Source of the DNA: Bacteroidaceae bacterium
GTDB lineage: Bacteria; Bacillota_I; Bacilli_A; RF39; UBA660
Reading direction: 5' to 3'
Assembly: GCA_963616135.1 (NCBI GenBank)
Contig: CAVEJT010000001.1
Location: forward strand, 76,844-140,843
Length of the DNA: 64,000 nt
Part shown: one piece after another, positions 305 to 47,399 of the stretch
How the letters are laid out: each line of letters starts with the position of its first letter
Position numbering within the stretch: the first letter of the stretch is position 1
Translations under genes and position numbers: made by a program
The notes under the pieces: model-generated
The model's input: only the letters and a program-made list of their open reading frames with translations
Databases searched by the model: none
What the model was told of the DNA's origin: nothing

Positions 305-320
305 GTTTACTAGTGTAAAC
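305..320. promoter_or_regulatory. Operator copy 1: GTTTAC-TAGT-GTAAAC inverted repeat
   Basis: Identical 16-mer also at 430..445, 39910..39925, 47384..47399 and one-mismatch variant 32634..32649. Confidence 0.6.
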
Positions 321-429
321 GACTTTAGAAGTGGTTTGGAGGTGGTGTGGTGTAATGTTAAAAGTAGTTTGAAGTGTTTTTATGTAGTAAATTTCTAGCA
401 GTATATATTTTATTTTTTTTAATCATATC

Positions 430-445
430 GTTTACTAGTGTAAAC
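430..445. promoter_or_regulatory. Operator copy 2: GTTTACTAGTGTAAAC
   Basis: Second copy 125 bp from copy 1, just upstream of ORF 470..658. Confidence 0.6.
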
Positions 446-469
446 ATTGTATTAAAAAAGTAAAGTGAG

Positions 470-658
470 GTGATAGTGATTTTTAAAGAAAAAGAAAGAT
501 ATCGCATTTATAATGCATTATCTGAAGATCACGGCTATTTTCTTACCATCATTAAGATTTGCAATAATACTATTTATTACTTATTTGATGGTATTGATGA
601 GGTTAAATGTTTTGATCTCCGAAGTGACTTTGCAGTAGATTTAATAAAGGTAGTTTAA
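470..658 (+). CDS. Small hypothetical protein (62 aa), possible alternative GTG start at 476
   Basis: ORF downstream of paired operators; GAGGTG RBS-like motif upstream; no recognisable domain. Confidence 0.3.
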   Translation: MIVIFKEKERYRIYNALSEDHGYFLTIIKICNNTIYYLFDGIDEVKCFDLRSDFAVDLIKVV

Positions 659-693
659 TTTAGTTCATCAGTTTTATGAGAGGAGCAACTGTT

Positions 694-960
694 ATGAGAT
701 TTTCTGATGATAATACTGTCATTCCTAAATGGATTTTGTATCATCTGAGAAAATATGGGAACTGTTGCTGTGGTAGAGAAATAGTAAAAAAATTAGGAAG
801 GGAAAAGATTTTACAATTATTAAGAAAAGAGGGGTATCCTTGTATATTACGAATTGTATATGATGATATGTTTCATAAACCCAGAAGAAAAGTAAAATAT
901 CCTCGTGATGCTTATTATATTTTAGAGATTGAATGTGTAGTTAAGAGTTATTTTATATGA
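694..960 (+). CDS. Putative antitoxin partner of MazF/PemK toxin (start likely ATG 694 after GAGAGGAG RBS; ORF track starts 676)
   Basis: Small ORF immediately upstream of and overlapping (ATGA) the MazF-like gene, typical TA gene arrangement; no fold recognised. Confidence 0.4.
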   Translation: MRFSDDNTVIPKWILYHLRKYGNCCCGREIVKKLGREKILQLLRKEGYPCILRIVYDDMFHKPRRKVKYPRDAYYILEIECVVKSYFI

Positions 961-1307
961 ATGAAATTAGAAGAGGAAAGGTATATGATGTAGAATTAAA
1001 AAATACATCATCACATGTTCAGTTCGGAAGACGTCCATGTTTGGTTGTTCAAAATAATTTAGGAAATACATTTTCTCCTACAATCATTGTTGTCCCATTA
1101 ACAACTAAACTCAAAAAAACACATTTACCTGTTCATGTTATAACTGCTAAAAATCAAATGGCATTATGCGAGTGCGTTTTAACTATTTCAAAGGAGCAAA
1201 TAATTTCTTATATTAAAACTTTAGATGAGAAAACTATGAAACTAATAGACAGAGCTTTATCCATTTCGTTGGAATTAGAAAAGGAGGGAACAGTATTAAA
1301 AAAGTAA
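957..1307 (+). CDS. MazF/PemK-family type II toxin endoribonuclease
   Basis: Motifs GKVYDVEL...RPCLVVQNN...IVVPLTT...HLPVHV characteristic of PemK/MazF (CcdB/MazF fold). Confidence 0.8.
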   Translation: MNEIRRGKVYDVELKNTSSHVQFGRRPCLVVQNNLGNTFSPTIIVVPLTTKLKKTHLPVHVITAKNQMALCECVLTISKEQIISYIKTLDEKTMKLIDRALSISLELEKEGTVLKK

Positions 1308-1324
1308 AACAAATTTATGAAGAT

Positions 1325-1876
1325 TTGTGTAGTAAAAGTTCTGAGAAGTATTGGTGTGACGAAGGAAATAATAAAAGAATGAGAAGTTATTATAAGTTAT
1401 CTAAAATATTAAAAGTAATCAAATACTTATTAATATTAGGGTTAATATTTTATTTTATAATATTAGCAACAAATAGTATCTTCTGCTTATTTGATAAATA
1501 TATCTGTTGTGAAAAAGAACTAACATTGTTAAGCTATGTTGATTTTAAAAAGTTTATTTTAGATATTTATATTGTCACTTTTATTATAACTTTATTTGTA
1601 GTTCTATATTTAAGTAGAAAACAAAGATATTCATTAAATAAAATTTTCTGTATTTTGGTGAGTGGTTTGTTATTTCTACCTGTTAGTGCATTGTTAATTT
1701 ATAACTTTGTAGCGTTAAAAAGTTTAATGAGTAGTTTTTATTTATTAGTAGTATTTAGTGTTTTAATGATTATAATCAATCAATTAACAAACAGAATTGA
1801 TAGATTATATGATATAGCAGTAGGTAGTAATGAAATAAAAGAAAGGAAAGGAAAGAAAATATGCAAGGAAAAGTAA
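1325..1876 (+). CDS. Multi-pass membrane protein, hypothetical
   Basis: Four to five hydrophobic helices in translation; no motif. Confidence 0.4.
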
Positions 1877-2091
1877 AATGGTTTAGTAGTGAGAAAGGAT
1901 ATGGATTCATATCATCAAATGAAAAGGAGCAAGATATATATGTTCATTTTTCAGATATTGTGATGAAAGGATTTAAAACATTGGATGAAAATGATATAGT
2001 AGAATTTGATTATGATGAAGAGATGAATAAAGCAGTAAATGTTCACAAAATCTCAGTTTCTGAAGAAAATGACGAAACAAAGAGTGAATAA
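1861..2091 (+). CDS. csp: Cold-shock protein (CspA family, S1-like OB fold)
   Basis: [15 protein letters not shown] ... VHFSDI ... GFKTL..VEFD - RNP1/RNP2 cold-shock motifs. Confidence 0.9.
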
Positions 2092-2552
2092 TGAAACTAT
2101 TTGATGATATAATAATATCAAAGATAGATTTGGATAGAACATCACAAAACGGAAAGGAAATTTGTGATCTATATCAACCGTTAGTAGAAAAAAGATTAAA
2201 ACAAGCAATGAACACCCCATTTAATTCAGCAAGTTTTGTTATGTTTTCAGAAAATAAGAAAGGTGGCAATTCTTCAGAAGTTAAATTGTTAGATCGTTTA
2301 TCTTGGATTGATGATCAAACAGGAAGTTATATCCGTAATGTATTGAAGATTCAAAAAAAGGATAAAACAATTGGTGAATTTTTAAAGTGGAAATGTTTTT
2401 ATGGATTAAGTGATAGAGAAATATCTAATAAAATCCAAAAAGATGAAAGAACAGTTAGAAGATATAAAGCACGAGCGTATTATTATCTTGCTGTTTATTC
2501 AAATCAGGTTGAGTTTATATATGAGAAAACATATCATTTTCAACTTGATTAA
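2091..2552 (+). CDS. ArpU-like / sigma-70 region-4-like transcriptional regulator
   Basis: C-terminal LSDREISNKIQKDERTVRRYKARAYYYL resembles sigma region 4 HTH as in ArpU/phage late regulators. Confidence 0.45.
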   Translation: MKLFDDIIISKIDLDRTSQNGKEICDLYQPLVEKRLKQAMNTPFNSASFVMFSENKKGGNSSEVKLLDRLSWIDDQTGSYIRNVLKIQKKDKTIGEFLKWKCFYGLSDREISNKIQKDERTVRRYKARAYYYLAVYSNQVEFIYEKTYHFQLD

Positions 2553-2614
2553 ATAGAAGTATTTATTAATGTGGATTCTTCCACATTAAAGACATAAGAA
2601 GTTGGAGGAGTAAA

Positions 2615-3619
2615 ATGAAGAAAAAAGTAGTTTTAGTAATTATTTGTTTAATAGTTGTATTTTTAGTAGGATTATTATTTGTAATACACAAAGAATCTAA
2701 TACAATTATTTTAAAAAAAGAAGAATTTATTTATGAATTAGGAGAGGAAATAAGTGCAGATGTATCTAATTATATTAAAGATGCTGATTCTATTAAGAAT
2801 ATAACAGAATATAAAATTGTGACAGATGATTTTAAAATTGTTGATAAAAAGTTAGTTATCAACAATGATAAACCTACTGTTGGTGATTACAATATTAATA
2901 TTGTGCATAAAAACGTATCTAAAAAAGTGATTATTAAAATAGTTGATACTACTTCTCCAGAGTTCACCACTTTTGAAGAAAATATTAAAATAGAACAAAC
3001 TTCAGAAGAAGTAGACTTACTAAAATATTTTGAAGCAACTGATTTAACTGAAGTTAAAATTACAATAGATGGTGAGTATGATTTGACTCAAGAAGGGGAC
3101 TATGATATTAACGTGATTGCAACTGATGCAAACGGAAATAAGATTAGTAAAAAAGCGACAATAACAGTTTATAAAAAAGAGGTAGCAAAGGAAACACCTG
3201 TTATCAAACAGGATAATAATATATCTAATAATAAATCATCAAACAATACGACAACAACTAAACCTGAAACTCCTTCGGTAAGATATAGAAAAGATGTTTC
3301 TGATTCATATATTGTGCAAATCAATGCTTATAGAAAAGCAAATGGATTGAATGAATTACCAGTCACAGCTGAAGCACAAGCAGAAGCTGATAAAAGATCA
3401 AAAGAATTATCTACTTATTATTCTCATGATGGTGTTGGATATGGCTTTGGCGAGATAATAGGAAATGGTTCAATAGGAGTGGATTTTATAACTGCATGGA
3501 AGAATAGTCCTTCACATAATGCAACAATGTTAAGAGATCATACTGTTGCAATAGCAGCTAGTATATATGAATGCAATAATCATTGGTATGCAGTAGTGTC
3601 ATTTAGAACAGACTATTAA
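2615..3619 (+). CDS. Membrane-anchored CAP/SCP (PR-1-like) domain protein with Ig-like (DUF5011-like) repeats and Thr/Asn-rich linker
   Basis: N-terminal TM; C-terminal ...YYSHDGVGYGFGEIIG...WKNSPSHNATMLRDHTVAIAA...WYAVVSF matches bacterial CAP domain. Confidence 0.6.
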   Translation: MKKKVVLVIICLIVVFLVGLLFVIHKESNTIILKKEEFIYELGEEISADVSNYIKDADSIKNITEYKIVTDDFKIVDKKLVINNDKPTVGDYNINIVHKNVSKKVIIKIVDTTSPEFTTFEENIKIEQTSEEVDLLKYFEATDLTEVKITIDGEYDLTQEGDYDINVIATDANGNKISKKATITVYKKEVAKETPVIKQDNNISNNKSSNNTTTTKPETPSVRYRKDVSDSYIVQINAYRKANGLNELPVTAEAQAEADKRSKELSTYYSHDGVGYGFGEIIGNGSIGVDFITAWKNSPSHNATMLRDHTVAIAASIYECNNHWYAVVSFRTDY

Positions 3620-3702
3620 CAATACAAAAAAGTAATAAAATCGTAAATTAATAATTTATACAAAATAAATTTTGAATATGTAAATTTACAAATAAAACAA
3701 AA

Positions 3703-6279: not shown

Positions 6280-6423
6280 TTCTTTTTTTTGCTTTTATTT
6301 ATATAAAAAATAAATATAGAAATGACAGTTCGTGTAAAATTTTGGCTATATAGGCATTATCCAACTAAAATTAAAACTTTTTGTGATATAATTATATCAA
6401 GAGTAGTTTTGCTCATAGATGGG

Positions 6424-7284: not shown

Positions 7285-7292
7285 GAGATGTA

Positions 7293-7934: not shown

Positions 7935-7949
7935 ACAAAATTTATAGAG

Positions 7950-32616: not shown

Positions 32617-32633
32617 TTTTTTTTAAAACTAAT

Positions 32634-32649
32634 GTTTACTTGTGTAAAC
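32634..32649. promoter_or_regulatory. Operator variant GTTTACTTGTGTAAAC (one mismatch)
   Basis: 15/16 match to dispersed operator; overlaps start of 32640 ORF. Confidence 0.45.
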
Positions 32650-33533
32650 AAAGAAAGGAATATCAAATGAAAAGCATAAGTTTAGAAAAAAACGGTAAAA
32701 AAATAAGAATATTAGGAAATCAAGCGACTATTGATAGAGCAACTCCTATTATTGATAGACTTAATTTAACAGGTATTGAATCAAAAGATAGATTATTAAT
32801 TCAAAATTGTATTGATGATAATAAGATAGGTGCAACTATTTTATATGATGGTAATACAGTTTATTCTTTCAACAAGATTGTGGATAAATATAAAAGGATT
32901 CAAAAAGACAATATGCTTTTGAATTTATCGGATGATTTATATAAATTCTTTCTAAATGCTTGTGGTGATATTGCTCATTGTGATAAATCTGGATATATTT
33001 ATTATTATGATAATGATTTTAGAAAATTAGAAAATACATTTTTAAAATATTGTAGATGCAATGATAGATTTTCAGATGTAAAAAGAATATTTAAAAAATT
33101 AAAAATAGGGCAATATTACGAAGATCGTGAAAGAATTGATCTTAATAAATTGAGTAAGAATGATGTAAAAAAAATTATTGAACAATGTAATTGGAATGTT
33201 TCAATTACAAATAAAAATGTCTGGGAATTGTCAATAAGAATAAATCCAAATTTCAAATTTTGTTTTGAAATAGATACAACTTATTTAAAAACAGGTGATA
33301 TAATTAAATGCTTGATGGAATATTGTATTAAATTTGATGTAGATGAATATATTGATATTCTTGTAAAGCAAAGAAATGGCAGTGGTTCTCCATCAGTTAG
33401 AACTATTGTCAATAATGCAGATATAATTTATTCAAAAATGCAACAGTTTGCTATGGATTTATTATATTATGGAAGACTTGCAGCACAGAATTTAATCGAG
33501 AAGGAACAGGAAGATATTGAAATAGAAAGGTAG
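32640..33533 (+). CDS. Hypothetical protein (297 aa; real start probably ATG 32667, MKSISLEK)
   Basis: ORF preceding primase; TTG start in ORF track lies inside operator, downstream ATG has GAAAGGAA RBS. Confidence 0.45.
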   Translation: MCKQRKEYQMKSISLEKNGKKIRILGNQATIDRATPIIDRLNLTGIESKDRLLIQNCIDDNKIGATILYDGNTVYSFNKIVDKYKRIQKDNMLLNLSDDLYKFFLNACGDIAHCDKSGYIYYYDNDFRKLENTFLKYCRCNDRFSDVKRIFKKLKIGQYYEDRERIDLNKLSKNDVKKIIEQCNWNVSITNKNVWELSIRINPNFKFCFEIDTTYLKTGDIIKCLMEYCIKFDVDEYIDILVKQRNGSGSPSVRTIVNNADIIYSKMQQFAMDLLYYGRLAAQNLIEKEQEDIEIER

Positions 33534-36500: not shown

Positions 36501-36599
36501 ATAATAGATAGTTATAATAAAATGATTAATAATAAAATAATTCAATTTCCTAATTCTAAAGAAGTTGTTTATGACGTACCAGAAAAGGAGGCAGCATAA
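33534..36599 (+). CDS. DNA primase (DnaG-type CHC2 zinc finger + TOPRIM) with long C-terminal extension
   Basis: CPFHNDNNPSLVV...CFACGTGGNAISF zinc-binding motif; LILVEGYMDVV TOPRIM acidic motif. Confidence 0.8.
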   Translation: MTNISLYSEVLKQASIVDVLNYYGLNLNHNKCLCPFHNDNNPSLVVNPKKNIATCFACGTGGNAISFVQKYEKIVNNNDISFNEAITKVVSEICHLNIDVSHLKKNKYNNKYFVSSRRYTEDEQKLLQLNEKLNKLFSYNLSVSKEPKDYLYKRNITDKDMKEVSMGFAPKGQLLKISEKNENYPRPELIELGYLRHNDYGDLYETFSDRIMIPIHDEKGNIVTFCGRTIKDETPKYLHTHETKIFQKKELLYNFSNAKPLAYNNELILVEGYMDVVGAKKIGFENVAALMGTAITPEHIKLIKNNRSSITLALDNDFDKQENIGRAKMLQHIPVLLNEGFKVDVIDFSKIGDYKDFGVLGEKEIPFMEVQKAKTSGFSFLLDYKYFNNLELNVENISLVYKQLKQDKIINNTYDESLFKEYLLNRTEYNKKELDEIIYPKRIEEKESALSKFNSKAMSNFLYSELKLQIDKMDDVVLSSYYLNFKGSVENKLVSIFNKDPELYLDYSTSTLNTKLLLNEFLKDNKEYSDYETLNRFKYNSVFDKTYIKNSKGSAMIKLKDNQKQMVIDQYENSLSDESKLALEEVEELYIINSIDDLDGILNYDNNTLNMIKDNLKNRMFLNKDKMEFFKYGNLFPSINKEFIDDKFKGSTGNFKTILFYNNLDNKLNIDKSNVVSEKELKKTEESKSKEMDKTNESIIKSDYEFSINKMLLVDSKETDTHYFVRIPFTSAKEYFYIPKDECLKSDNGDTIFTKLKYGQSHSIYNVDGEYIGTKSFEELKENWEDKTKKNVRVLDKNEDVQSVPKEEDILYDNSYISKYKEPICKIYHSKIYLETEKGFYIKTEDPNILLFALKKICNWTDNKSYLIIAPRKGIFNSGMSKYRLTGYKKDYEGKLSFSEISKYVKVFTPSNLKNKEILTLEIPKVKCSFKSNFIKVPLVIDNLEGYIEVNLVKSKIDKEKVVLEFLKDEQIGFHNINDEYINHYTSSKIIDSYNKMINNKIIQFPNSKEVVYDVPEKEAA

Positions 36600-37928
36600 A
36601 TGGATGGTAATGCTAAACACGATTTAGAGCATACTGCTGAAAAATCAGTATCAATGTCTGCAAAGATTAGTAAAATTTCTACCATTTTATTTGGTAGATT
36701 TTTAATAAAAGCAAATCGTTATTATCAAAAACACTTTTCTTCATCTATGAGGGCTTTAAGAAAAGATGGGGCTACAAAAGAATTATGTGTATCTCCACCA
36801 TTAACAAGGGCAGAAGTTAAACAGATTATAACTTCATGTCATGAGAATAATATTCTTATGGGAATTAAAAAAATGCATCCAGATGGAGAATTAAGTAATA
36901 ATAAATCTTTATATCAACAAGAAAAACTTGCTCATAATGAAATTAAGTATAAGAAATGGGATGAAAGACGTAAGGCAACATCAAAGATAAAAATTTTAAA
37001 TAAAATTTGTAAACATCAAGCAGATAAATATAAAAATATTTCAGCATATAATTTGAAATTATCTAATAGATGGTTGTCCTTTCAAGAGAAGACACGTAAA
37101 ATAAAACCCTTAAATAAATATTGTAAGATGAAAGCAGATAATTATAAAAATATTGCTATTCAAGAAAAAACAAAAGATGAAGAGGAACAATATGTTATTA
37201 TTTTTAATAAAAGTAAATTATCATTTTTTAATGAACAATTAGCTAAAATACCACCTAATAGATTAAAGCAAGAAACAAAAAGTGATTTAGATGGTATAAA
37301 TAATGAAGAAATAATTGATGATAGAAATATAGAACCTATGGTTTCAAGAGGTATGAATTTAAGTGTAAATGATCTTAATAAAATAGGTGAAGATTTTGGA
37401 TCATGTCCTGTTAGAGATTATAGTAAAAATTATTGTATTCAAAAAATAACTAAGGAAGAATATTGTGAAATTAGAGAACAGTTATTTGAACTACCAAGTC
37501 ATGGTGCTTGTGTTCTTAATGAAAAAGAAATGATAATAGCTATTCGTTCTGAGGATTTAGATGAATATAGAGAATATGCTCCAGAAAGACCTATAAAGGA
37601 ATATGGTTCATCTGGTGGTAGAGCAATAGAAAGTGAATCTAATATTCATGATATTATGGAATTAGAAATAAATGATATTAAAAGATACAAAGAATTTAAA
37701 GAAACTTATTCATCTAAAGATTATGTGGCAGAAATTGCTCCGAATGGGAAAACTACTATATTATTAAAAGAAACGGATACAAAGAATCTTTTAGAAGAGA
37801 GTAAAAAAAAATCAAAAACAGAGGATTTAGTAAAAGAGGCAAATGAATTAGCAGAAAAGAGTAAGACTGATAAAGTTATTGAAAATGTTGCACTAGAGCA
37901 GAAAGAAGAACAAGAAATTGATCGTTAA
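36600..37928 (+). CDS. Hypothetical protein with internal KILNKICKHQADKYKNI / KPLNKYCKMKADNYKNI repeat
   Basis: ORF overlapping T4CP start; no catalytic motif recognised. Confidence 0.4.
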   Translation: MDGNAKHDLEHTAEKSVSMSAKISKISTILFGRFLIKANRYYQKHFSSSMRALRKDGATKELCVSPPLTRAEVKQIITSCHENNILMGIKKMHPDGELSNNKSLYQQEKLAHNEIKYKKWDERRKATSKIKILNKICKHQADKYKNISAYNLKLSNRWLSFQEKTRKIKPLNKYCKMKADNYKNIAIQEKTKDEEEQYVIIFNKSKLSFFNEQLAKIPPNRLKQETKSDLDGINNEEIIDDRNIEPMVSRGMNLSVNDLNKIGEDFGSCPVRDYSKNYCIQKITKEEYCEIREQLFELPSHGACVLNEKEMIIAIRSEDLDEYREYAPERPIKEYGSSGGRAIESESNIHDIMELEINDIKRYKEFKETYSSKDYVAEIAPNGKTTILLKETDTKNLLEESKKKSKTEDLVKEANELAEKSKTDKVIENVALEQKEEQEIDR

Positions 37929-39861
37929 ACGCAATAAGAAGAGTAGTATTATAATTGTCTTACTAATAATGTTAGTTGCCTCTTATTACACACTTAGAGT
38001 TTGTAGTCTTACAGAAATGGCTGGTAAGTTTGAATTTTCCCAGTTAACTGAAGCATTAGATAAACTTCATATTATTTCTACACCTGTTATTTTAAATATG
38101 AAGACTATTACTACTTCTTTGTTTGTTGGGATATTTACATGGGGAATTATTCAAACAGTTGCAAATCAAAATAAAAAGAATTTGCAAGAAAATACTTATG
38201 GTAGTGCAGAGTGGGAAGATCCAAAAGTAATAAAACCTTACTGTGAGAAAGAATTAGAAAAGAATCAAATATTTACTGCTACTGAAATGTTTGCTAAAAA
38301 TATGCGAATATCTAAAAGAAATAGACATTTAATTTTAATTGGTAGACCAGGAAGTGGTAAATCAAGATATTATTTTAAAGTTAATTTATTAAATGCAAAT
38401 GGAGAAACATTTGTTGTCACAGATCCGAAAGGCGAATTAGTCAGAGATTGTGGAATGTCTTTGATTAATCTCGGATATGATATTCGTGTTTTAAATCTAG
38501 TTGATAAATCAAAATCAGATCATTTTAATCCACTTATGTATATAAAAAAAATCAATAAAACTATTGATAATAGTAAGGAAACTCAAGAATGGATAGCTGA
38601 AGATGATGTAATGACATTAATTAATACTATAATGTTAAATACAAAATCAGAAACTATTGAATCCAATACTGGTGATCCATTCTGGGAGAAGGCAGAGATG
38701 GTTTTTCTTCAAGCAATTATTTATTATATAATTTTTAATTATGATGATAAAGAAAAGAATTTTAAAACTGTTTTAAAATTAATTAGACTTGCTGAACCTG
38801 ATAAAGAAGGAAATTCAACATTGAGTAGAATGTTTGATGTTTGGGCAGAAAAAGATCCAGAAAATATAGGTGTTAAGCAATGGAAACATTTTAAAGTATC
38901 TGCATCATCACCAAAAATGATGAGTACAATCATAATGACTGCATCTGCACGTTTAGCACCTTTCAATATATCTGAAATAGAGTCTATGACTGTTGACGAT
39001 ACAATGGAATTAAATAGAATTGGTGGTAAGGGTGATGAGGGTAAAATTGCTTATTTCATCATTAATAGTCCAAACGATTCTACTTTCAATTTTATGGCTA
39101 GTATTTTATATACACAAATATTTTCAATAATAGATGCCAATGCTAGTAAAAATAATGGCTCTCTTTCTACTCCTGTTCAAATATACTGTGATGAGTGGGC
39201 ACAACTAGGGGTAATCCCACGCTACTTAGAAAATTTGGCTTATGTTCGTGGATTAAATTGTGGAATTACGACGTGTCTGCAAAGTCTATCTCAGTTGAAG
39301 AAGGTTTATAAGGATAATTGGGAAACGGCTTTGGATTGTTCAGACTACGTATTGTTTTTAGGTTCAAGGTCTAAAGAAACTTTAGAATATATGAGTAGCA
39401 TGTTGGGTAAAAAAAGTTGGTATAAAAAGTCTTCTGGTCGTACATATTCAAAACAAGGTTCATCATCTTATAACTGGGATATAGTTGGACGTGAGTTAGC
39501 ATTTGTAGATGAACTTGCAAGAATGGAGAGTGGATATGGTATTTTATTGGTTGCTGGTATGCGACCTTTTTATTCTAAATTATATGATTTAACTAAGCAT
39601 CCTAGATATAATGAACTATTTGAAAGTTGGAATGAAAAGGAAACAATTCAGAATAAATATGATCATTCGATAGAAAGGGGAAAAGATAAAGAAACAAAAA
39701 GAAAACAGCAGATGTTTAGAGAACTAGGATTAGGGTTTGTAAAAGTAAAACCAGAATTTAAAGCAAGAGATTTAACTCAATATGAAGAACGCAAGTTTAA
39801 TGAAGATGCAATTTTGCTTTCTTCTAAGAGTTTAACGGATGAATTATTGGATAATTTATAA
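37918..39861 (+). CDS. Type IV coupling protein (VirD4/TraG/PcfC family)
   Basis: N-terminal TM helices; Walker A GRPGSGKS; VVTDPKGEL; DPFW; Walker B-like IYCDEWAQLG. Confidence 0.85.
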   Translation: MIVKRNKKSSIIIVLLIMLVASYYTLRVCSLTEMAGKFEFSQLTEALDKLHIISTPVILNMKTITTSLFVGIFTWGIIQTVANQNKKNLQENTYGSAEWEDPKVIKPYCEKELEKNQIFTATEMFAKNMRISKRNRHLILIGRPGSGKSRYYFKVNLLNANGETFVVTDPKGELVRDCGMSLINLGYDIRVLNLVDKSKSDHFNPLMYIKKINKTIDNSKETQEWIAEDDVMTLINTIMLNTKSETIESNTGDPFWEKAEMVFLQAIIYYIIFNYDDKEKNFKTVLKLIRLAEPDKEGNSTLSRMFDVWAEKDPENIGVKQWKHFKVSASSPKMMSTIIMTASARLAPFNISEIESMTVDDTMELNRIGGKGDEGKIAYFIINSPNDSTFNFMASILYTQIFSIIDANASKNNGSLSTPVQIYCDEWAQLGVIPRYLENLAYVRGLNCGITTCLQSLSQLKKVYKDNWETALDCSDYVLFLGSRSKETLEYMSSMLGKKSWYKKSSGRTYSKQGSSSYNWDIVGRELAFVDELARMESGYGILLVAGMRPFYSKLYDLTKHPRYNELFESWNEKETIQNKYDHSIERGKDKETKRKQQMFRELGLGFVKVKPEFKARDLTQYEERKFNEDAILLSSKSLTDELLDNL

Positions 39862-39909
39862 TTATCTTTTTTATGTTGTTTAAGTTGTTAAATTTTTTTT
39901 ATATTAAGT

Positions 39910-39925
39910 GTTTACTAGTGTAAAC
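39910..39925. promoter_or_regulatory. Operator copy 4 GTTTACTAGTGTAAAC immediately downstream of putative -10 (TTGTTT -35 at 39876, TTATAT/TATATT -10 ~39899)
   Basis: Identical 16-mer plus identical flanks (AAGTG...GA) to copy 1. Confidence 0.55.
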
Positions 39926-39952
39926 GAAAAATTAAAGAAAAGGAGAAAAATT

Positions 39953-40279
39953 ATGGAAAAAAAGAATTTGGCAGTTAGAATTAAGCAGTTAAGTAAAAAA
40001 GTAGTTAGTTTGTTTAATGTAGTTTTATGTGGTTTTATTTTAAGTATTAATAGTGTATATGCACAAGGAAGTAATACAAGTAGTATTGATGGATTTATTA
40101 CCTTTGTGTGTGATTGGTTGTTAAAGATTGGTGGTGTAGTTGCATTAATTGGTGCTGTTATGTTTGCTCTTGGATGGCAACGTGATGACGCTGAAGGTAA
40201 AAGTAGAGGATTGATGACTATGATGGCAGGTTTTATGGTTATAGCAATTAGTCAATCAAAAGGTTTATTCGGATTATAA
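39953..40279 (+). CDS. Small secreted/membrane T4SS component (pilin-like/TrbC-VirB2-like or PrgF-like); ORF track start 39908 is a GTG inside the operator
   Basis: Signal-peptide-like N-terminus ending VYAQG, two hydrophobic helices; first gene of T4SS operon; RBS AAAGGAG before ATG 39953. Confidence 0.45.
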   Translation: MEKKNLAVRIKQLSKKVVSLFNVVLCGFILSINSVYAQGSNTSSIDGFITFVCDWLLKIGGVVALIGAVMFALGWQRDDAEGKSRGLMTMMAGFMVIAISQSKGLFGL

Positions 40280-40295
40280 GAAGGAGGATTAATAG

Positions 40296-41114
40296 ATGGC
40301 TGGATTAATTGAAAAAATATTTCAAATATCCTTTAAAATCTTAGGTTTTAAAATTGACATTAGTGATTTTGTTGGAACAATCCGTAATTTATGTAATTGG
40401 AATTCAATTACAAAAACCACTATATGGTCATTAGCTTCTAGTATTCATTCTGTTATTGTACCAATCGGGTTAAGTTTATTAACCTTGTTCTTTTTATTAG
40501 ATGTGACTAAAAAAGTAATGGATTATGAAAGATTTAGTTGGGAACGGATGGTATTTACTTTCATCCGTTTTCTTATCTTTAAAATGTTAATTGAAAATTC
40601 ATTTGAATTACTTTCGTCTATAATGAGCATATCTAATAATATTCTTACTCAGGTCACAAGTTCATTAACTTCATCATCAGCAATACCTAATTTGGCTACA
40701 CAAATGGGGGATTTAGTTAGAAACGCTGGTAATATTGTTGAACGAGGTTTTATGGGAATTATTATCTTAATTCTTTATATACCTTTTATGGGTACATTAA
40801 TTGGTGTTTTAGTGCAAGTATTTTTGCGTATAGGTAAGTTGATACTAAGTTTTGCATTTTCTCCTATACCTATTGCAATCGGAACTTGGGAAGATGGTCA
40901 GAATGTTTGTAAAAGATTCATAATGTCTATTATTGCTTTAGGTTTTGAAGCATCAATGATTGTCGTAGCAACGGCAATATATTCATTGGCTTTATCCACA
41001 TTAACTGATGCTGGTTCGATTAGTTCAATGGTAGCAATAATGTTCTTGAATGGTTTCTTAATGGCAATGATTTCTATGACTAGTACAATGGCAGAAAGGT
41101 GGGTAGGTGCATAA
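40296..41114 (+). CDS. VirB6/TcpH/PrgH-like polytopic membrane protein
   Basis: Five to six TM helices, position between pilin-like gene and VirB3/VirB4 homologues. Confidence 0.5.
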   Translation: MAGLIEKIFQISFKILGFKIDISDFVGTIRNLCNWNSITKTTIWSLASSIHSVIVPIGLSLLTLFFLLDVTKKVMDYERFSWERMVFTFIRFLIFKMLIENSFELLSSIMSISNNILTQVTSSLTSSSAIPNLATQMGDLVRNAGNIVERGFMGIIILILYIPFMGTLIGVLVQVFLRIGKLILSFAFSPIPIAIGTWEDGQNVCKRFIMSIIALGFEASMIVVATAIYSLALSTLTDAGSISSMVAIMFLNGFLMAMISMTSTMAERWVGA

Positions 41115-41728
41115 TGGATAGGATAGAACCAAGAATACATGATGAAATAAAGGATTATAAAGAAAAATTTTATAATTTTACTTTAAGACAATGGTTATTT
41201 GGAATTCTTCTTATTATAACTATCGTACCGTTATATTTATTTTTAACACCTAAAATCGGTAGTAATCTTACAGGGTGGATAGTTATTATTGCTGCTATAC
41301 CAATAGGTTTTTTTGGATTTATTCCTATTCAAGGATTAAACGCAGAACGTATAATTTTTTACTGGAAACGTAATTATATCAATTTTGCTAAACCTATTTT
41401 ATATAAAACTGAAGCAGAATTATTAGAAGAAAAAACTAATAAAAAGAAGACTGGAAAACCTAAAAATAAAAAAGAAGTAAAGAGTAGTAAAAAACAAGAA
41501 AAATTAAAATTAAAAGAATTAAAAAAAGAACGTAATAAGCAAAGAGAATTGGCACGTGCTAAAAAGAAATTTGGAATAAATACATTAGAAAATACTACTA
41601 GCAACTTTTCGTTAAGTCAGCAAGAGGCACAAGTGCTATTAAAACTCGCTAAACAAGTTGTTGGAAAGGATAATAGTGTGATATATGAAACAGAAAAAGA
41701 AAACATTGAAAAAGAAACAAAAGAATAA
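41099..41728 (+). CDS. VirB3/PrgI-like small membrane protein with lysine-rich coiled-coil tail
   Basis: Two N-terminal TM helices immediately upstream of VirB4 gene. Confidence 0.45.
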   Translation: MGRCIMDRIEPRIHDEIKDYKEKFYNFTLRQWLFGILLIITIVPLYLFLTPKIGSNLTGWIVIIAAIPIGFFGFIPIQGLNAERIIFYWKRNYINFAKPILYKTEAELLEEKTNKKKTGKPKNKKEVKSSKKQEKLKLKELKKERNKQRELARAKKKFGINTLENTTSNFSLSQQEAQVLLKLAKQVVGKDNSVIYETEKENIEKETKE

Positions 41729-44099
41729 CGTATTACCAAATAAAGTATTCATTCCTAAAACTAATCAAGAAATTATTTCTTATATGTTTAAGGAAGTTGA
41801 TGAAAGAACAGGGATATTTAGAATAGATGAAGATACATATTCTATTTGTATTGAATATTCTGATGTATCATTTGCAAAAGCTAATGATGAAGAAGCAGAA
41901 AATATTTTCTTTAAGTGGTTAGAATATTTACATTCTTTTAGGGAAGATACACATATACAAGTTATTAATGCAGGTACTCCTATCAAAACGGAAAAATATA
42001 AAGAAAAGTTTATATTCGAAAAAGAGCATTTAAAAAGTGAAAAGCAAATTCAAATTGCTGATGAATTAAATACTCTAATAACTAATTCGCTTGGTACTAA
42101 TGAAGATACATTGCAAACAAAAAGATTTATAGTAATTTCTTTAAAAGCAAAAAACTTTATAGAAGCAAACGCATTATTTTTAAATATCTTTCTGAAAACT
42201 GAGCAGAAGTTTAAAGAATTAAAATCAAAGGTTAATTTAATTTCAGTTAAGGATAGATTAAAATTTATATATAATTTTTTTAATATATTATCAGTAGAAG
42301 ATAATAATATTGAGAATATAATTGAATATGCAAAAAATCAAAACTTAACTATATTTGATGTAATTGCTCCTAAAAAGGTTCTTATGCGTGAGTCTGATCT
42401 TATAGAAATAGATGATAAAAAATTTATCAGAGTTTTATATGTTTCTAAATTACCTAAGAGTCTAACTCCAAGATTTTATAATAGAATTACTACAATGGAT
42501 GATATTAATATAATAACAACATTAAATATTAATCCTACCAATTCTGCTAAGATGATTAAAGTAGTAGATAAAAGTCTGTCTGCTATGGAAACTGAAAGAT
42601 TAGAAAAAATTAAAAGGGCAGGAAAAAGTAATCTTGACTATGAGTATGTGAAAGATAAAAAACTAGAAACAAAAATATCTAATGCAGAACAATTACAATA
42701 TGATTTGCAAAAGAATAATCAAAAGATATTCCAAAATAATTTTTTAGTGTGTATAACTGCTAATAGTTTTGAAGAGTTAGAAGATCAAACAGTTAGAGTT
42801 CAAGAAATTGCTGCTGAAATGTTAGTTGAAATGAAGCCGTTGTTATGGCAACAATTAGAGGGAATACAGAATATTCTTCCTTTAGGTCATAATAGTCTTC
42901 AATTTCAAAGAACTTTAACTAGTGAAGCAACAGCAGTAAATGTACCATTTAATAGTAAAGATTTCAATCATGAGAAATCTTTATTTTATGGTGTTAATCT
43001 TGTTAGTAAAAATGCAATTTTCTGTGATAGGAAAAAATTAATCAATGGTAATGGATGTGTACTTGCTACTTCTGGTGCTGGAAAATCTTTTAATGTTAAA
43101 ACCATTATAGAGCAAATTTTAATTCGTTATCCAGAAGATGAGATATGTATTATAGAGCCACAAAATGAATATGGTGGATTATTAGATGTTTTTGATGGAC
43201 AAAAGATAATTATATCCACTAATTCTGATACACACATTAATCCGTTTGATTTGTCTTTAAATTATGGATGTAGTGATAGTGGAAAGAGCGAACCAGTAAA
43301 AAGCAAAGTTGAATATATTATTGCTTTTTTAGAAAGTATAGTGGGAGCAAATGCTTTATCTGGTGGTCAAAAAACTATTATTGATCGTTGTACTAAGATT
43401 ATTTTTGAGGATTATGAGAAAAGTAATTTTACTGATGATAGTTTATTACCAACATTACCATCTTTTTATGATATGCTTTTGAAACAACCTGAAGAAGAAG
43501 CAAAAGATTTAGCATTAATCATTGAAAGATATGTAAAAGGTTCTATGGATTTATTCTCTAAGAGAACCAATATAGATATTCAAAATAGATTAGTATCGTT
43601 TGATATTAGTCAGTTGTCTGCATCATTACAAACTACTGGATATCTTGTAGTATTGGATCACATTCAGAATAGATTGGCAAAGAATAAAGAGTTGGGAAAA
43701 TATACGTGGATTTTTATAGATGAATTTCACATCTTACTTGCTAATCCTTATTCTGCACAATATGTAGCCAATTTTTATAAAACAGGAAGAAAGTTAAATG
43801 CTTTGAATACAGTAATCTCACAACAAATTTCTCATTTACTGCGATCGGAATCTGGAAAAGATATTTTGTCTAATTCTGAGTTTGCTCTAATATTAAAACA
43901 AAAACCTTTAGATTTACCATCTATTTGTAATATTTTTAATATTAGTGATGAAGAATCAATGTATGTTCAAGGTGATGCTCCTACTGGACAAGGTTTAGTA
44001 GTATTTGGTTCTGATGTTATTCCTTTTACTAATAAAGTACCAAAAGATTATTTAATCTATCAAGTTAATAATACAGATAGTCAAGTACAGGCAAGATAA
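41685..44099 (+). CDS. VirB4-family conjugation ATPase (TcpF/PrgJ/TraE-like)
   Basis: Walker A ATSGAGKSF, Walker B WIFIDEFH, size ~800 aa, T4SS context. Confidence 0.85.
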   Translation: MKQKKKTLKKKQKNNVLPNKVFIPKTNQEIISYMFKEVDERTGIFRIDEDTYSICIEYSDVSFAKANDEEAENIFFKWLEYLHSFREDTHIQVINAGTPIKTEKYKEKFIFEKEHLKSEKQIQIADELNTLITNSLGTNEDTLQTKRFIVISLKAKNFIEANALFLNIFLKTEQKFKELKSKVNLISVKDRLKFIYNFFNILSVEDNNIENIIEYAKNQNLTIFDVIAPKKVLMRESDLIEIDDKKFIRVLYVSKLPKSLTPRFYNRITTMDDINIITTLNINPTNSAKMIKVVDKSLSAMETERLEKIKRAGKSNLDYEYVKDKKLETKISNAEQLQYDLQKNNQKIFQNNFLVCITANSFEELEDQTVRVQEIAAEMLVEMKPLLWQQLEGIQNILPLGHNSLQFQRTLTSEATAVNVPFNSKDFNHEKSLFYGVNLVSKNAIFCDRKKLINGNGCVLATSGAGKSFNVKTIIEQILIRYPEDEICIIEPQNEYGGLLDVFDGQKIIISTNSDTHINPFDLSLNYGCSDSGKSEPVKSKVEYIIAFLESIVGANALSGGQKTIIDRCTKIIFEDYEKSNFTDDSLLPTLPSFYDMLLKQPEEEAKDLALIIERYVKGSMDLFSKRTNIDIQNRLVSFDISQLSASLQTTGYLVVLDHIQNRLAKNKELGKYTWIFIDEFHILLANPYSAQYVANFYKTGRKLNALNTVISQQISHLLRSESGKDILSNSEFALILKQKPLDLPSICNIFNISDEESMYVQGDAPTGQGLVVFGSDVIPFTNKVPKDYLIYQVNNTDSQVQAR

Positions 44100-44101
44100 T
44101 T

Positions 44102-45919
44102 ATGAAAGATAATACTGAAAGAGATGTTAAGAGGTCAATTGATAGATTATCAACATTATCATCAGAAGCATCAAGTCATACATTTAAATCAGTAGATAAA
44201 ATAGCAAAAAAAGCATCTGATTTGATTGAAAACAGATCCATAGAACAAAATCTAGCAGAAAAAGAGAAGGAAGTAGAATCAAGATTAAAAACATCAGAAT
44301 ATGTCCAAGAAAATAATAATGAAACGGATTTATCAACAGAAGGCAATAATGATTCTACAAGTAAGTTGAAAACAAATGTTAATAACGACACATCATCAAC
44401 AACTAACTTTCAGGAAGAAAAAGATGTAGAAGCAAAAGATTCTGATAAGGATATTCCTAAGAAAAGTAAATTAAAAACAGTTGTAGAAAAAACTAATAAA
44501 AAAATATTCAAATTTAATGATAATCAAGGAAAGGTATCAAAGGTAGCAACCACAGTTAGTAAAGGTGGCGAAAAATTATCTAAAGCAGGTAGAAGTATTG
44601 TTAAAACATCAAGAGAACTAAATAAGGCAATGAGTGAAAATGGTAGTGGTGTAGATTATATAAATGAAAAAATAACTCGTAAAATTAAAACTAAGGCATC
44701 TAATAAAATTAAAAAGAAAACAAAAAAAGTCGCAAGTAAAATAGGAAAAAAGTTTAATCAAACTATTGGTAAAAAATTATTTCAAGTTGCAAAAACTATT
44801 GTTATGAAATTAATAAAGATGCTTATATCATTATTAGCTGCATTGGCAGAATTTATTATTCCATTGGCACTTATTCTTATAATAATAATTTCAGTATGTT
44901 CTATATTTGGTTCTACTATGTCTGAAAGTTCTCTCAGTTCATATCAACAATATATGAATTCCATTCAAGAGGAGTATGACAAAAAAGTTGATGAATTCTT
45001 AGAAGAAAATCCAGATGGAGAAGTTTTTGCTGTTGGTGGCAGTTATGGTAGAATTGATTGGAGAATTCCATTATCCATAATGCAAGGTACAGGAGCAGAA
45101 TTAGAATTCGATCAAACTGAAAAAGATTTAATACAAAAATTTAAATCTGAAGGTTTATTGGAAAAACATGAGATATTGGAACAGGTTGTATATGATACAG
45201 ATGAGGCAGGTAATACAACAGAAACTACAAAAAAAGTATTAGTAATTACCAATAGCATGTATGAAGATTATATGGATTGGTGTCGTGATAATTATAGTAA
45301 TATTGCTAACTTTAATAAAGCAAAAAAAGTATCTAATGGAACAGAAACTTATTTTACTAAAGATCAATTAGATATGATAAGTTTATTGTATAATTCAGAT
45401 TTTTTTGCAGATGCTTTAGGTAGTAGTTTTAAAACACGAACTCCTACTTATGGAAAAACAAATATACCATTGAATCTTAATACCGAACATTTTAATGAAA
45501 AAAATGCTTTAACAAATGCTGGTTTTAAGGGACAATGTACTTGGTTTAGTTATGGTCGTGCATTACAAGTATCTGGAAAAAAGATGCCAACAGGAAACGC
45601 ACAAACTTGGATTACTTCTGCAATATCAATGGGATATGAAACTGGTACTCAACCTTCATATAATTCTGTTGTAGTATTGTCTTCCAAGAGATTTGGACAT
45701 GTTGCTTTTGTAGAAGCTTATGATGGAAAAACAATAACTATATCTGAAGGAAATGTTGGTAATGCTTGTAGAAGTGATGATTCATGTAGTCAAGTAGAAT
45801 ATGCTAATAAACATGCAAATGAGTTAGTAAGAACAAAAACTTATAGTTCGTTTGATGAGTATAGAAGAATAAATAAAAATAATGGATACACCATTATAGG
45901 ATTTATATATTTAGATTAA
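44102..45919 (+). CDS. T4SS-associated peptidoglycan hydrolase with C-terminal CHAP domain (PrgK/TcpG-like)
   Basis: TM segment mid-protein; C-terminal GQCTWFSYGR ... GHVAFVEAYDG CHAP Cys/His motifs. Confidence 0.8.
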   Translation: MKDNTERDVKRSIDRLSTLSSEASSHTFKSVDKIAKKASDLIENRSIEQNLAEKEKEVESRLKTSEYVQENNNETDLSTEGNNDSTSKLKTNVNNDTSSTTNFQEEKDVEAKDSDKDIPKKSKLKTVVEKTNKKIFKFNDNQGKVSKVATTVSKGGEKLSKAGRSIVKTSRELNKAMSENGSGVDYINEKITRKIKTKASNKIKKKTKKVASKIGKKFNQTIGKKLFQVAKTIVMKLIKMLISLLAALAEFIIPLALILIIIISVCSIFGSTMSESSLSSYQQYMNSIQEEYDKKVDEFLEENPDGEVFAVGGSYGRIDWRIPLSIMQGTGAELEFDQTEKDLIQKFKSEGLLEKHEILEQVVYDTDEAGNTTETTKKVLVITNSMYEDYMDWCRDNYSNIANFNKAKKVSNGTETYFTKDQLDMISLLYNSDFFADALGSSFKTRTPTYGKTNIPLNLNTEHFNEKNALTNAGFKGQCTWFSYGRALQVSGKKMPTGNAQTWITSAISMGYETGTQPSYNSVVVLSSKRFGHVAFVEAYDGKTITISEGNVGNACRSDDSCSQVEYANKHANELVRTKTYSSFDEYRRINKNNGYTIIGFIYLD

Positions 45920-45930
45920 AAGGAGAAAAA

Positions 45931-46347
45931 ATGAAAAAGAAAAAATTATGGATACTACTTATTGTAGTATTATTTGTTTGTAGTCTTACATCAGTATTGT
46001 TTAATTATAAAAATATAAAAAGGAATATAGAAATTGCTAAAGAAGAACAAGTTGAAAAAGAAAGAAAAGAAGAAATGCTAAAACAGGATTTAATTAGTCC
46101 TGTTTTAATTTTAAAGCAAGATAAATTAATAATGTATCAAGGTGATGAATTAAATTATAAATCATTTATAAAAGAAGCAACTGATAATTTAGAAGGAGAT
46201 TTAACTGATAGAGTTAAATATACAAAAATAGATACTTCTAAAACAGGAGAATTTTATGTTGATTATGAAGTAAGTGATTCAGCATCAAATGTTATTAAGG
46301 CAAGATTATTAGTAATTATTCGTGAAAAGCCAAATTTTAAGGATTAA
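45931..46347 (+). CDS. Membrane-anchored Ig-like (DUF5011-like) domain protein, T4SS-associated
   Basis: N-terminal TM; domain similar to repeats in 2615..3619 and 46373..47116 proteins. Confidence 0.4.
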   Translation: MKKKKLWILLIVVLFVCSLTSVLFNYKNIKRNIEIAKEEQVEKERKEEMLKQDLISPVLILKQDKLIMYQGDELNYKSFIKEATDNLEGDLTDRVKYTKIDTSKTGEFYVDYEVSDSASNVIKARLLVIIREKPNFKD

Positions 46348-46372
46348 TTTAATATAAGTGAGGTGATGAAAT

Positions 46373-47116
46373 ATGACTGATGAACAGTTATTAACAATGT
46401 TTCGTAAGTATAAGAAAAAGAGAAATATAATTATAATTTCAATATTGGTAATTATTATTAGCTCTATATTTATATTTTTATCTATCAGTAATACTTCATC
46501 TAAAAATGATGCAAAAAGCAAAGAAATTACTAATGTATCAAAAGAAAAAGATGAAATAGCTCCAGTTATAAAACTTAATACTAATTATATAGAAATTATT
46601 GAAGGAGGTGATGTGGATTATTTAAAATATATTGAAAGTGTTATAGATGATAAGGATGGAGATCTTTTAGAAAGTATTACTTATAATGAAATAGATACAA
46701 CAAAAATTGGTGAACAGAAAATAATATATACTGTTTCAGATTCTTCTGGTAATACATCACAAGAAGTTGTTGTAGTTAATGTACTAAAAAAAGAAGAACC
46801 AATAGAAGAAACAAAAGAAAATACTTCATCAAATTCTAGTAGTGTTGAGTCTTCAAAAAAAGAAGAACAACAGCCATCAAATAGTGTGTCAAATAATACA
46901 ACTACAAAACCTGAGCCACCATCTAATAATCAAGTAGAAGATACACCTTCTACAAAAAAAATAATAAAATATTTTTTGTTTAAAGATGGATATACTATGC
47001 AAAATGTTTCAGAAGCATGTGCAACTGAATTGAAAAAGACAAACAGAACAGGTATTTGTAGTCCAATTCAAGATGAAAATGGCATCTATTTGGGTATGAA
47101 ATTAGAAACAAATTAA
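46373..47116 (+). CDS. Membrane-anchored Ig-like domain protein (possible VirB8/PrgL-like role)
   Basis: N-terminal TM, Ig-like domain, Ser/Asn-rich linker, C-terminal Cys-containing domain. Confidence 0.4.
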   Translation: MTDEQLLTMFRKYKKKRNIIIISILVIIISSIFIFLSISNTSSKNDAKSKEITNVSKEKDEIAPVIKLNTNYIEIIEGGDVDYLKYIESVIDDKDGDLLESITYNEIDTTKIGEQKIIYTVSDSSGNTSQEVVVVNVLKKEEPIEETKENTSSNSSSVESSKKEEQQPSNSVSNNTTTKPEPPSNNQVEDTPSTKKIIKYFLFKDGYTMQNVSEACATELKKTNRTGICSPIQDENGIYLGMKLETN

Positions 47117-47138
47117 TTTAGAAAAGGGAGATGTATAA

Positions 47139-47366
47139 ATGAATAAAGAATATATAAAAGAATTATTTGAAGAAGAAAAAGAAGTCTTTATCCATCATGG
47201 ATTAGATATAGAAACTCCAGAAGATTTGGAGGATTTTATGGAATCAATTATAATTTCAAATATGCAATTTGAGTTTGATATATCTCCAAATGCAGATAAA
47301 TTATTTAATAGGGATAAAGAAAATACTAAAGAATTATCAAATGAAGATCATGATATAGAAAAATGA
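47139..47366 (+). CDS. Small highly acidic protein (75 aa)
   Basis: Net charge strongly negative (E/D-rich); candidate DNA mimic. Confidence 0.4.
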   Translation: MNKEYIKELFEEEKEVFIHHGLDIETPEDLEDFMESIIISNMQFEFDISPNADKLFNRDKENTKELSNEDHDIEK

Positions 47367-47383
47367 TTTTTTTTACATTGAGT

Positions 47384-47399
47384 GTTTACTAGTGTAAAC
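47384..47399. promoter_or_regulatory. Operator copy 5 GTTTACTAGTGTAAAC upstream of HTH gene
   Basis: Identical 16-mer; followed by AAAGAAAAGGAGAAAAA leader as at copy 4. Confidence 0.55.

Follow-up and report, generated by a model that had tools for sequence, protein, structure and literature searches.

The 64,000-nt stretch of contig CAVEJT010000001.1 analysed here (hereafter the window; GC content ~25%) carries five copies of a 16-bp palindrome, GTTTACTAGTGTAAAC, which head gene blocks of two mobile elements: copies 1 and 2 lie on a small, separable, integrase-bearing element (E1), and copies 3 to 5 on an integrative conjugative element (ICE). This palindrome is a real, conserved and selected feature. 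Because its two 6-bp half-sites, whose centres are 10 bp apart, have the geometry of a dimer operator, a regulon is its best reading, and we give about an even chance to the 16-mer being an operator that a dimeric regulator of the helix-turn-helix (HTH) or winged-helix type recognises in double-stranded DNA. The original prediction, made from the window alone, had proposed a regulon of one element: the selected cis-element at the heads of gene blocks and its operator geometry are upheld, but its confinement to a single element is not.

In a pattern search, GTTTACTAGTGTAAAC was found exactly at 305–320, 430–445, 39910–39925 and 47384–47399, always on the + strand, while GTTTACTTGTGTAAAC, which has a single change inside the 4-nt spacer (TTGT) and intact arms, was found at 32634–32649 (+), all as originally described. 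There is no sixth site in the window, even allowing up to three mismatches. The chance expectation is 0.06 sites per window (≤2 mismatches) versus five observed, a number reached in none of 100 shuffles, and all five sites are intergenic. Reading the sequence also confirmed the similarities noticed earlier between the surroundings of the copies, i.e., the AAGTG...GA flanks common to sites 305 and 39910 and the purine-rich leader AAAGAAAAGGAGAAAAA common to sites 39910 and 47384. Site 305 lies 13 nt 3′ of the −10 of a promoter (TTGACT-17-TATTAT), site 430 ~30 nt 5′ of the gene for a 60-aa protein, site 32634 17 nt 5′ of an ATG at 32667, site 39910 27 nt 5′ of the pilin-like first gene of the type IV secretion system (T4SS), and site 47384 26 nt 5′ of an XRE-family gene. 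The third of these sites had been placed before a 297-aa gene preceding the primase; its placement is correct, but the protein more likely has 288 aa, from the ATG at 32667 rather than from the listed TTG.

Pfam scans of the window revealed conjugation genes of the Gram-positive type, a sortase gene among them, and thus an ICE. This element is integrative, as indicated by its xis (HTH_17) and tyrosine integrase genes (62458..63963, +; Pfam), which are mentioned for context and lie outside the motif. E1 spans the window from 1 to ~6300. With its 94-aa protein (676–960) as lookup query, window 1–3625 was recovered at 97–98% identity in three contigs (L099, L101 and L106; such labels designate the fetched relative loci or contigs compared with the window), where it lies within a ~10-kb element, E1, beside secA. 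The right flanks of E1 differ between assemblies, and the few kb fetched on that side contain no ICE genes, hence the assignment of copies 1 and 2 to a separable element. Both E1 palindromes are intact across these contigs (L099–L106), though adjacent bases vary. Moreover, E1 and ICE sites occur on a single contig in three further assemblies. Attachment (att) repeats delimiting the right boundary of E1 were sought and none was found, nor was any relaxase or T4SS gene found on E1.

Copies 2 to 5 are embedded in a cassette that the original prediction had missed. Right after the upstream stop codon comes a run of 8–9 T, which ends exactly 9 nt 5′ of the palindrome, and the palindrome is followed by a Shine-Dalgarno sequence and by an ATG at 17–30 nt; on the ICE, the layout reads stop codon, T7–9 tract, 9 nt, 16-bp palindrome, Shine-Dalgarno, ATG. 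Cassette 2 (413..445, +), on E1, is made of T8 at 413–420, 9 nt and the palindrome at 430–445, followed by the Shine-Dalgarno sequence and the 60-aa gene. Cassette 3 (32617..32649, +; T8 at 32617–32624, 9 nt, palindrome at 32634–32649 with spacer TTGT) precedes an ICE block (32667..39861, +; Pfam, identity tables) encoding the hypervariable 288-aa protein, the primase, a 442-aa protein and the VirD4 coupling protein (37918–39861). Cassette 4 (39892..39925, +; T9 at 39892–39900, 9 nt, palindrome at 39910–39925) precedes the T4SS block (39953..47366, +; Pfam, gene calls), with genes for a TrbC/VirB2-like protein (39953), a TrbL_2-like protein, PrgI, a VirB4-like ATPase, a CHAP hydrolase, Ig-like proteins and an acidic 75-aa protein. 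Finally, cassette 5 (47367..47399, +; T8 at 47367–47374, 9 nt, palindrome at 47384–47399) precedes the gene for a 217-aa XRE-family HTH protein (47426..48079, +; Pfam, homologues), the first of a block that also encodes ArdC, a NikA-like protein and a relaxase (56761–58446, +; Pfam).

Copy 1 (305..320) has no T-run and is the only one associated with a convincing promoter of the sigma-70 type. This promoter, P1 (TTGACT-17-TATTAT; 263..291, +), scores 10/12, and the palindrome covers about +6 to +21 of its transcript. In an alignment of E1 relatives of 61–70% protein identity, P1 is invariant and the palindrome always lies ~12–13 nt 3′ of its −10, three relatives (L230, L233 and L236) having at this position a palindrome of their own variant. 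A putative second promoter, identified by reading, may lie between copies 1 and 2 (extended −10 TGgTGTAAT at 348..356, +; TGgTATAAT in L099). A relaxed scan gave at best 8/12, at 39910 and 47384, where the match ends 5 nt 5′ of the palindrome; the same scan gave no match at 430 or 32634, and no consistent offset was seen in relatives. The earlier statement that the copies sit exactly at promoters is thus correct for copy 1 but not for copies 2 to 5, and the cassettes on the ICE could act as weak promoters under regulation, as roadblocks or in the RNA.

Two other roles were considered and rejected. The cassette is not an intrinsic terminator, for which the T-run stands on the wrong side (it precedes the stem on the + strand, and the A-run follows the stem on the − strand), and neither arm (GTTTAC or GTAAAC) is a −35 of the TcdR/ECF type, as the matching −10, given the spacing required, would have to overlap or follow the Shine-Dalgarno sequence. 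An intrinsic terminator does exist at 207–229 (GCTGTATAG...CTATACAGC plus a T-rich tail); it ends the gene 5′ of P1 and is invariant in E1 relatives.

Conservation and variation of the cassette in relatives

With VirD4 as query, 71 relative loci were fetched, which yielded 53 distinct cassettes; these ICE relatives come from metagenome-assembled genomes of uncultured gut ‘Tenericutes’, Bacilli and ‘Clostridium sp. CAG’. The cassette occupies the same junctions in relatives with 50–80% protein identity (50–77% for the XRE protein), while the flanking intergenic bases differ, and it is also found at extra junctions, before the 65-aa/ArdC genes and before ssb. The distance between T-run and palindrome is 9 nt in nearly all cassettes (10 nt in L024 and L025, 8 nt in L048), the T-run being missing at a few sites. 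The related ICE loci, 1.17 Mb in total, contain 34 matches to the pattern GTYYAC-N4-GTRRAC, and a T-run lies 8–10 nt upstream of 33 of these; 113 kb of host flanks contain none.

At a given junction, the cassette is gained or lost as a unit. The junction of cassette 3 is occupied in class-A relatives and empty in L034, L042, L044, L048, L041 and L040, whereas that of cassette 4, between virD4 and the pilin-like gene, is occupied in more than 30 relatives and empty in L046, L049, L051, L053, L054, L059 and L063. Cassette 5 is kept directly before the xre gene in most relatives, and L041 has a duplicated cassette. The most extreme arrangement is found in the E1 relative L230, where six tandem ~54-bp units (T-run plus GTTTACAGTTGTGAAC) fill the leader of the MazF operon (9472–9783) and a seventh copy of GTTTACAGTTGTGAAC directly follows the promoter. 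The seven copies are identical, including a T.G non-pair and the 4-nt centre, when the ~54-bp units overall match at only 78%.

In distant ICE relatives (L066–L083), a strong terminator-like hairpin (AGAGATAAATC...GATTTATCTCTTTTT) replaces the cassette between virD4 and the pilin-like gene, ~90–190 nt past the end of the VirD4 match (roughly 11990–12090 in most loci). As for other collections, the 16-mer is present in five viral contigs, with one isolated occurrence each, and no near-identity matches were found in plasmid and phage collections.

The palindrome itself comes in several variants, and the sites of one element usually carry the same one. Variant A (GTTTAC-TAGT-GTAAAC) characterizes the window and its close relatives, and appears flipped in L040 (GTTTAC-ACTA-GTAAAC). 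Other ICE relatives have variant B (GTTCAC-TATT-GTGAAC), B′ (GTTTAC-TATC-GTGAAC), C (GTCTAC-TATT/TATC-GTAGAC), D (GTAGAC-AATA-GTCTAC, in L041) or E (GTTTCC-TATT-GGAAAC, in one relative), while E1 relatives have GTTTAC-AGTT-GTGAAC (L230), variant F (GACTAC-TGTT-GTAGTC) or GTTTAC-TATT-GTAAAC. In an alignment of 49 distinct sites, 95.9% of the cells are paired and 19 cells are changed on both sides, in three pairs (3/14, 4/13 and 5/12, to which E1 relatives add 2/15); these values for pairing and double changes were reached by none of 500 shuffles.

The palindrome as a proposed DNA operator

On E1, the operator at about +6 to +21 of the strong promoter P1 is followed 125 bp further by a second one, beside the ribosome-binding site, and a protein bound at these sites would block or trap the RNA polymerase. 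On the ICE, the operator would act from within a compact, copy-pasted cassette that separates the stop codon of one block from the beginning of the following block. The three cassettes would gate transcription into the replication/coupling block, the T4SS block and the XRE/anti-restriction/relaxase block, through either a weak regulated internal promoter or a roadblock. The sequences show the sites and their conservation, the make-up of the cassette, the compensated changes in the arms, the presence on two elements and the match to an operator of known type, and from there we infer protein binding, repression and which protein is involved. Since E1 and the adjacent ICE carry an identical operator, both would answer to the same regulator.

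Recognition of the site appears to be independent of the strand. Beyond the flipped copies of L040 and L041, the divergent region beside the CI-like HTH gene of L099 has two sites 28 bp apart that are exact reverse complements, and L233 and L236 likewise have two sites in the divergent region beside a CI-like gene. The seven identical copies of L230 further suggest a selection on the sequence itself, and not on the stem alone. One-sided changes in the stem show no G.U excess on the sense strand (13 G.U-type versus 9 C.A-type cells), although such a count discriminates poorly.

A known operator of this form exists: the published operator of the CopR/CopY-BlaI-MecI repressors (cop box) has the 16-base consensus RNYKACANNTGTMRNY (PMC7253601). 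GTTTACTAGTGTAAAC fits 11 of its 12 specified positions, with T instead of A at position 7, and variant C also fits except at position 7; B, B′, D, E and F have mismatches at other positions as well. In a metagenome scan, the 16-mer was found mostly on E1 and the ICE, plus in scattered, chance-looking matches in unrelated contigs of higher GC content. Five contigs of an unrelated lactic-acid bacterium (34–40% GC) show TTGACA, 6 nt and the identical 16-mer, after which comes another GTTTAC-N4-GTAAAC box. Two of these loci were examined (L114, 10700–11229; L146, 4985–7982), and in both a 151-aa gene directly follows the boxes; its product in L114 is a Penicillinase_R/CopY protein (E-value 3.6e-37), and an ORF for a heavy-metal P-type ATPase lies downstream in L146. 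On sequence grounds, this copY-copA promoter region shows that a winged-helix dimer can use exactly our 16-mer.

It could be that the sites are operators for a CopY/BlaI/MecI-type repressor encoded by the host, which would make the elements responsive to a signal of the host, e.g., copper. The consensus fit and the identical 16-mer before copY are in line with this idea, as is the lack of such a repressor in the elements: Pfam scans found no Penicillinase_R (PF03965)/CopY homologue in the main ORFs of the window or in the E1 left arm, and a local HMM built from four CopY sequences reached a best E-value of 0.26. Yet, the 113 kb of host flanks contain no match, ICEs from similar hosts and sample sets carry different variants, the consensus is not kept by variants B, D, E and F, and T replaces A at position 7 in nearly all copies. 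The context also differs from that of CopR/CopY, the window sites preceding the MazF-operon, primase, T4SS and XRE genes and not cop or bla/mec operons, hence transfer genes instead of metal or beta-lactam resistance. We regard control by a host CopY-type repressor as very unlikely.

The original prediction had nominated the XRE HTH proteins of the element (genes at 47426, 60262, 5479 and 6022) as regulators, which could not be established. For XRE 47426, the helix SHTEL[V/A]RIENGNR goes with variant A in 7/7 cases and SDTE[I/V]SRIEHGER with variant C in 5/5, but the helix tracks the variant only loosely (see below) and the xre gene is physically linked to its own site, so that co-inheritance alone proves little; XRE 47426 is a possible regulator. 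Between L034 and L035, the backbones are 94–98% identical, yet the site at the virD4/pilin junction has switched variant along with the xre and p288 alleles (p288 being the 288-aa protein). This site is a distant one, and the factor therefore probably lies in the swapped xre/p288 segments, or else beyond the 20 kb covered. On the side of E1, the CI-like HTH protein is the best candidate, its gene being expected from synteny just upstream of the window: relatives have this gene 5′ of the part that corresponds to window position 1, and the helix of the protein changes from one variant to another. Among the other two nominated genes, HTH 5479 is in the window part assigned to E1, and HTH 6022 resembles the HTH protein at the right end of E1 in relatives.

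Several candidates were discarded. XRE-TM 60262 as master regulator belongs to a large family and has a 75%-identical homologue in a chromosomal, non-ICE context. The 94-aa protein of E1 has a putative helix region that is nearly invariant across elements with different palindromes, at odds with a variant-specific binder, and the 75-aa protein upstream of cassette 5 (47139–47366) is too strongly acidic for a DNA binder; the latter is unusually variable, also among ICEs that are nearly identical (79% identity in L030 versus 96–100% for neighbouring genes). A binding role for p288 is unsupported, for it is found in relatives devoid of the cassette and has no family match. The 288-aa protein itself (32667–33533) is hypervariable, with 32–96% identity in relatives versus 50–98% for the primase and VirD4, and only 39% between L034 and L035 though their primases are 96% identical; it matches nothing in Pfam, NCBIfam or PHROG.

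A number of observations weigh against the operator. The ICE cassettes have no consistent −35/−10 in the relaxed promoter scan, and their status as promoters is unproven; the fixed T-run is left without explanation by an operator. T-run-to-palindrome spacers are alike within an element, and copy-paste or gene conversion, with no specific factor involved, could explain part of the uniformity within elements. The orientation relative to the downstream gene is the same in nearly all copies, and the 6-bp stem (−4 kcal/mol), with its conserved G-C closing pairs, resembles an RNA hairpin. On the protein side, the E1 CI-like HTH repressor and the ICE XRE 47426 are no more than candidates, and CopY homologues are missing, as noted above. 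BLAST and family HMMs found no regulator common to E1 and the ICE, only generic HTH_3 and Ig-like similarity. Finally, L044 and L034 share variant B′ but differ in their XRE helix, and L044 and L042 have near-identical XRE helices with different variants.

RNA, mobile-cassette and priming alternatives

The main alternative is an RNA hairpin in a polycistronic transcript, in which the U-run, the 9-nt spacer and the 6-bp/4-nt hairpin would form a site for an element-encoded antiterminator. The model is the nut site of phage lambda, which consists of boxA, a spacer and boxB and serves antitermination of the N type; both have a linear element, a fixed spacer of ~9 nt and a hairpin of 15–16 nt that differs between related elements. 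Alternatively, the RNA could be a processing or 5′-stabiliser site, or modulate translation through pairing of the U-run with the purine tract 5′ of the Shine-Dalgarno sequence. The sense orientation of nearly all copies, the linear element at a fixed distance and the compensated changes at four stem positions with G-C closing pairs kept would all be expected of such a hairpin, copy 1 would sit at the 5′ end of the P1 transcript, and folding pairs the U8–9 with UAAAGAAAA around the hairpin (z-scores −1.3 to −2.7). The terminator at the virD4/pilin junction of distant relatives moreover makes a read-through control plausible there. However, flipped copies, and exact reverse-complement pairs in a divergent control region that does not look transcribed, are hard to reconcile with RNA, as are the lack of sense-strand G.U bias among one-sided changes, nearly all of which fall in the right arm, and the perfect conservation of the centre and of the T.G non-pair in L230. 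Besides, the stem is weak, a search of Rfam at the gathering threshold for the window, and at E ≤ 1 for 150–700, gave no match, and the ICE yielded no protein resembling N or Q, E1 having only a faint Q-like/ArpU-like match. Unlike a nut site, the palindrome can be oriented either way and is also present within a divergent control region, with no wobble bias on the sense strand, and no N-like partner was identified; we judge the RNA reading unlikely.

The behaviour of the cassette as a unit could also point to a primarily mobile regulatory or recombination cassette, i.e., a ~55-nt unit that is copy-pasted and offers a crossover point for gene swaps, regulation being secondary. Such units are known from T4-type phages as promoter-stem-loop cassettes (PeSLs), which combine a recognisable early promoter and a terminator-like stem-loop in lytic phages (PMC2839356, PMC4122927). 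Like PeSLs, our cassettes are short, composite, placed before genes, gained or lost whole and next to the most variable genes; unlike them, they have no consensus promoter, belong to an ICE and have as their stem a 16-bp palindrome that resembles an operator. The presence or absence of the whole unit at the same junction in close relatives, its amplification in L230 and duplication in L041, and the similar spacers within elements fit this scenario, as does the hypervariability of the swapped downstream genes p288 and xre (39% and 61% identity between L034 and L035, versus 94–98% for the backbone). The metagenome contig L212 goes in the same direction: it joins the E1 promoter region (window 1–322) to the ICE pilin-like gene (39892–40228) exactly at the 16-mer (shared AAGTGTTTACTAGTGTAAACGA), and may be a true recombinant of the two elements or else a chimera created by the assembly at this repeat. 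Mobility, however, leaves unexplained the palindrome and its compensated changes, the placement at +6 of a strong promoter and the divergent CI-like region. It is compatible with an operator rather than an alternative to it; as the primary function, mobility seems quite improbable to us.

Least probable of all, in our view, and by a long way short of credible, is a single-stranded DNA hairpin used in conjugation, e.g., as a priming signal for the DnaG-type primase of the ICE. The large primase (33534–36599, +; Pfam), the uniform strand of the sites on the ICE and the CTA invariant at positions 6–8 of the sense copies, in the loop, would suit such a signal, for the DnaG of Firmicutes starts at CTA. 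Against it stand the invariable location of the sites between stop codon and Shine-Dalgarno sequence, their number (only three in more than 55 kb), their occurrence on E1, where no relaxase or T4SS gene was found, and the two orientations in the divergent region beside the CI-like gene.

Known systems and other genes of the two elements

Conjugative plasmids are known to use global operator regulons, such as those of KorA, KorB and TrbA in IncP-1 RK2 and of ArtA in pSK41. The DNA operator that we favour resembles them in that a short palindrome is dispersed over control points that include transfer genes and a regulator gene; here, the repeated operator stands at the heads of transcription units, at three ICE junctions and two E1 sites, and at the same junctions in relatives. 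It differs in that Pfam found no KorA, KorB/ParB or ribbon-helix-helix regulator, in that the sites are part of a fixed T-tract cassette abutting the ribosome-binding site, without recognisable −35/−10, and in its host, an uncultured low-GC gut lineage. A second comparison is offered by AcaCD (IncA/C) and SetCD (SXT/R391), activators of the FlhDC type that bind upstream of promoters and whose regulons reach genomic islands. The likeness lies in one cis-motif being common to a conjugative element and to a small integrative element that is separate from it in the same genome, which implies cross-control; in contrast, Pfam scans of the window ORFs found no FlhC/FlhD domain, and our motif lies downstream of the only clear promoter.

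It is conceivable, though rather doubtful, that the ICE and E1 share one operator ‘code’, carried by a copied and diversifying cassette, by which the regulator of one element directly controls the operons of the other (satellite-helper eavesdropping). The kind of system is already known, both for dispersed operator regulons and for motifs that extend to satellite islands; what is new is the form of the cassette, its variants and the lineage. In Proteobacteria, AcaCD and SetCD are known cases of helper-satellite cross-talk, and an operator coupling the ICE to the MazF-carrying E1 would extend it to gut elements of the Gram-positive type, whereas an ordinary autoregulated repressor site would add a routine case to a familiar theme. 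In uncultured low-GC gut Bacilli/‘Tenericutes’, conjugative elements are essentially unstudied; a recognisable cis-element at the heads of transcription units can serve to annotate operons and to sort elements according to their operator variant, and it also helps the search for the master regulator that decides when DNA transfer switches on.

The gene order of E1 is as follows: integrase, HTH_36/DnaD_N-like protein, CI-like HTH gene on the opposite strand and small genes; then the promoter region with its two palindromes and the genes for the 60-aa, 94-aa, MazF, cold-shock, ArpU/RinA-like and CAP-domain proteins; and finally reverse-strand genes and HTH genes. The operon 3′ of copies 1 and 2 (476..3619, +; Pfam, PHROG, NCBIfam) encodes, all on the + strand, the 60-aa protein (476–658), a 94-aa protein with a CCC motif (676–960), the MazF toxin (957–1307), a 183-aa protein (between the MazF and cold-shock genes), the cold-shock protein (1861–2091), the ArpU/RinA-like sigma-region-4 protein (2091–2552) and the CAP-domain protein (2615–3619). 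The gene for the 94-aa protein overlaps the start of the MazF gene. The GNCCCGR motif and fourth Cys of the protein are invariant in 23/23 aligned sequences (window plus 22 homologues), and it probably acts as an antitoxin of an unusual kind that may bind metal. The 153-aa protein (2091–2552) looks like a transcriptional activator of the ArpU/RinA type with a sigma region 4, to judge from its matches to phrog_248 (E-value 2.5e-4), TIGR01637 (0.042) and Sigma70_r4_2 (0.042).

The ICE integrase (window 62689–63963) and the E1 integrase (L099, 6114–7433) have 49% protein and 69% DNA identity, and related attachment sites may explain the adjacency of the two elements. Window 6322–25340 looks like a block of cargo, for which the fetched relative loci end too near on the left to allow comparison. 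It encodes a MerR regulator (10351), a second, truncated VirD4-like ATPase (10733), a radical SAM/SPASM enzyme (12127), a DUF4272 protein of 1138 aa, a metallophosphatase and two ADP-ribosylglycohydrolases (23359 and 24510).

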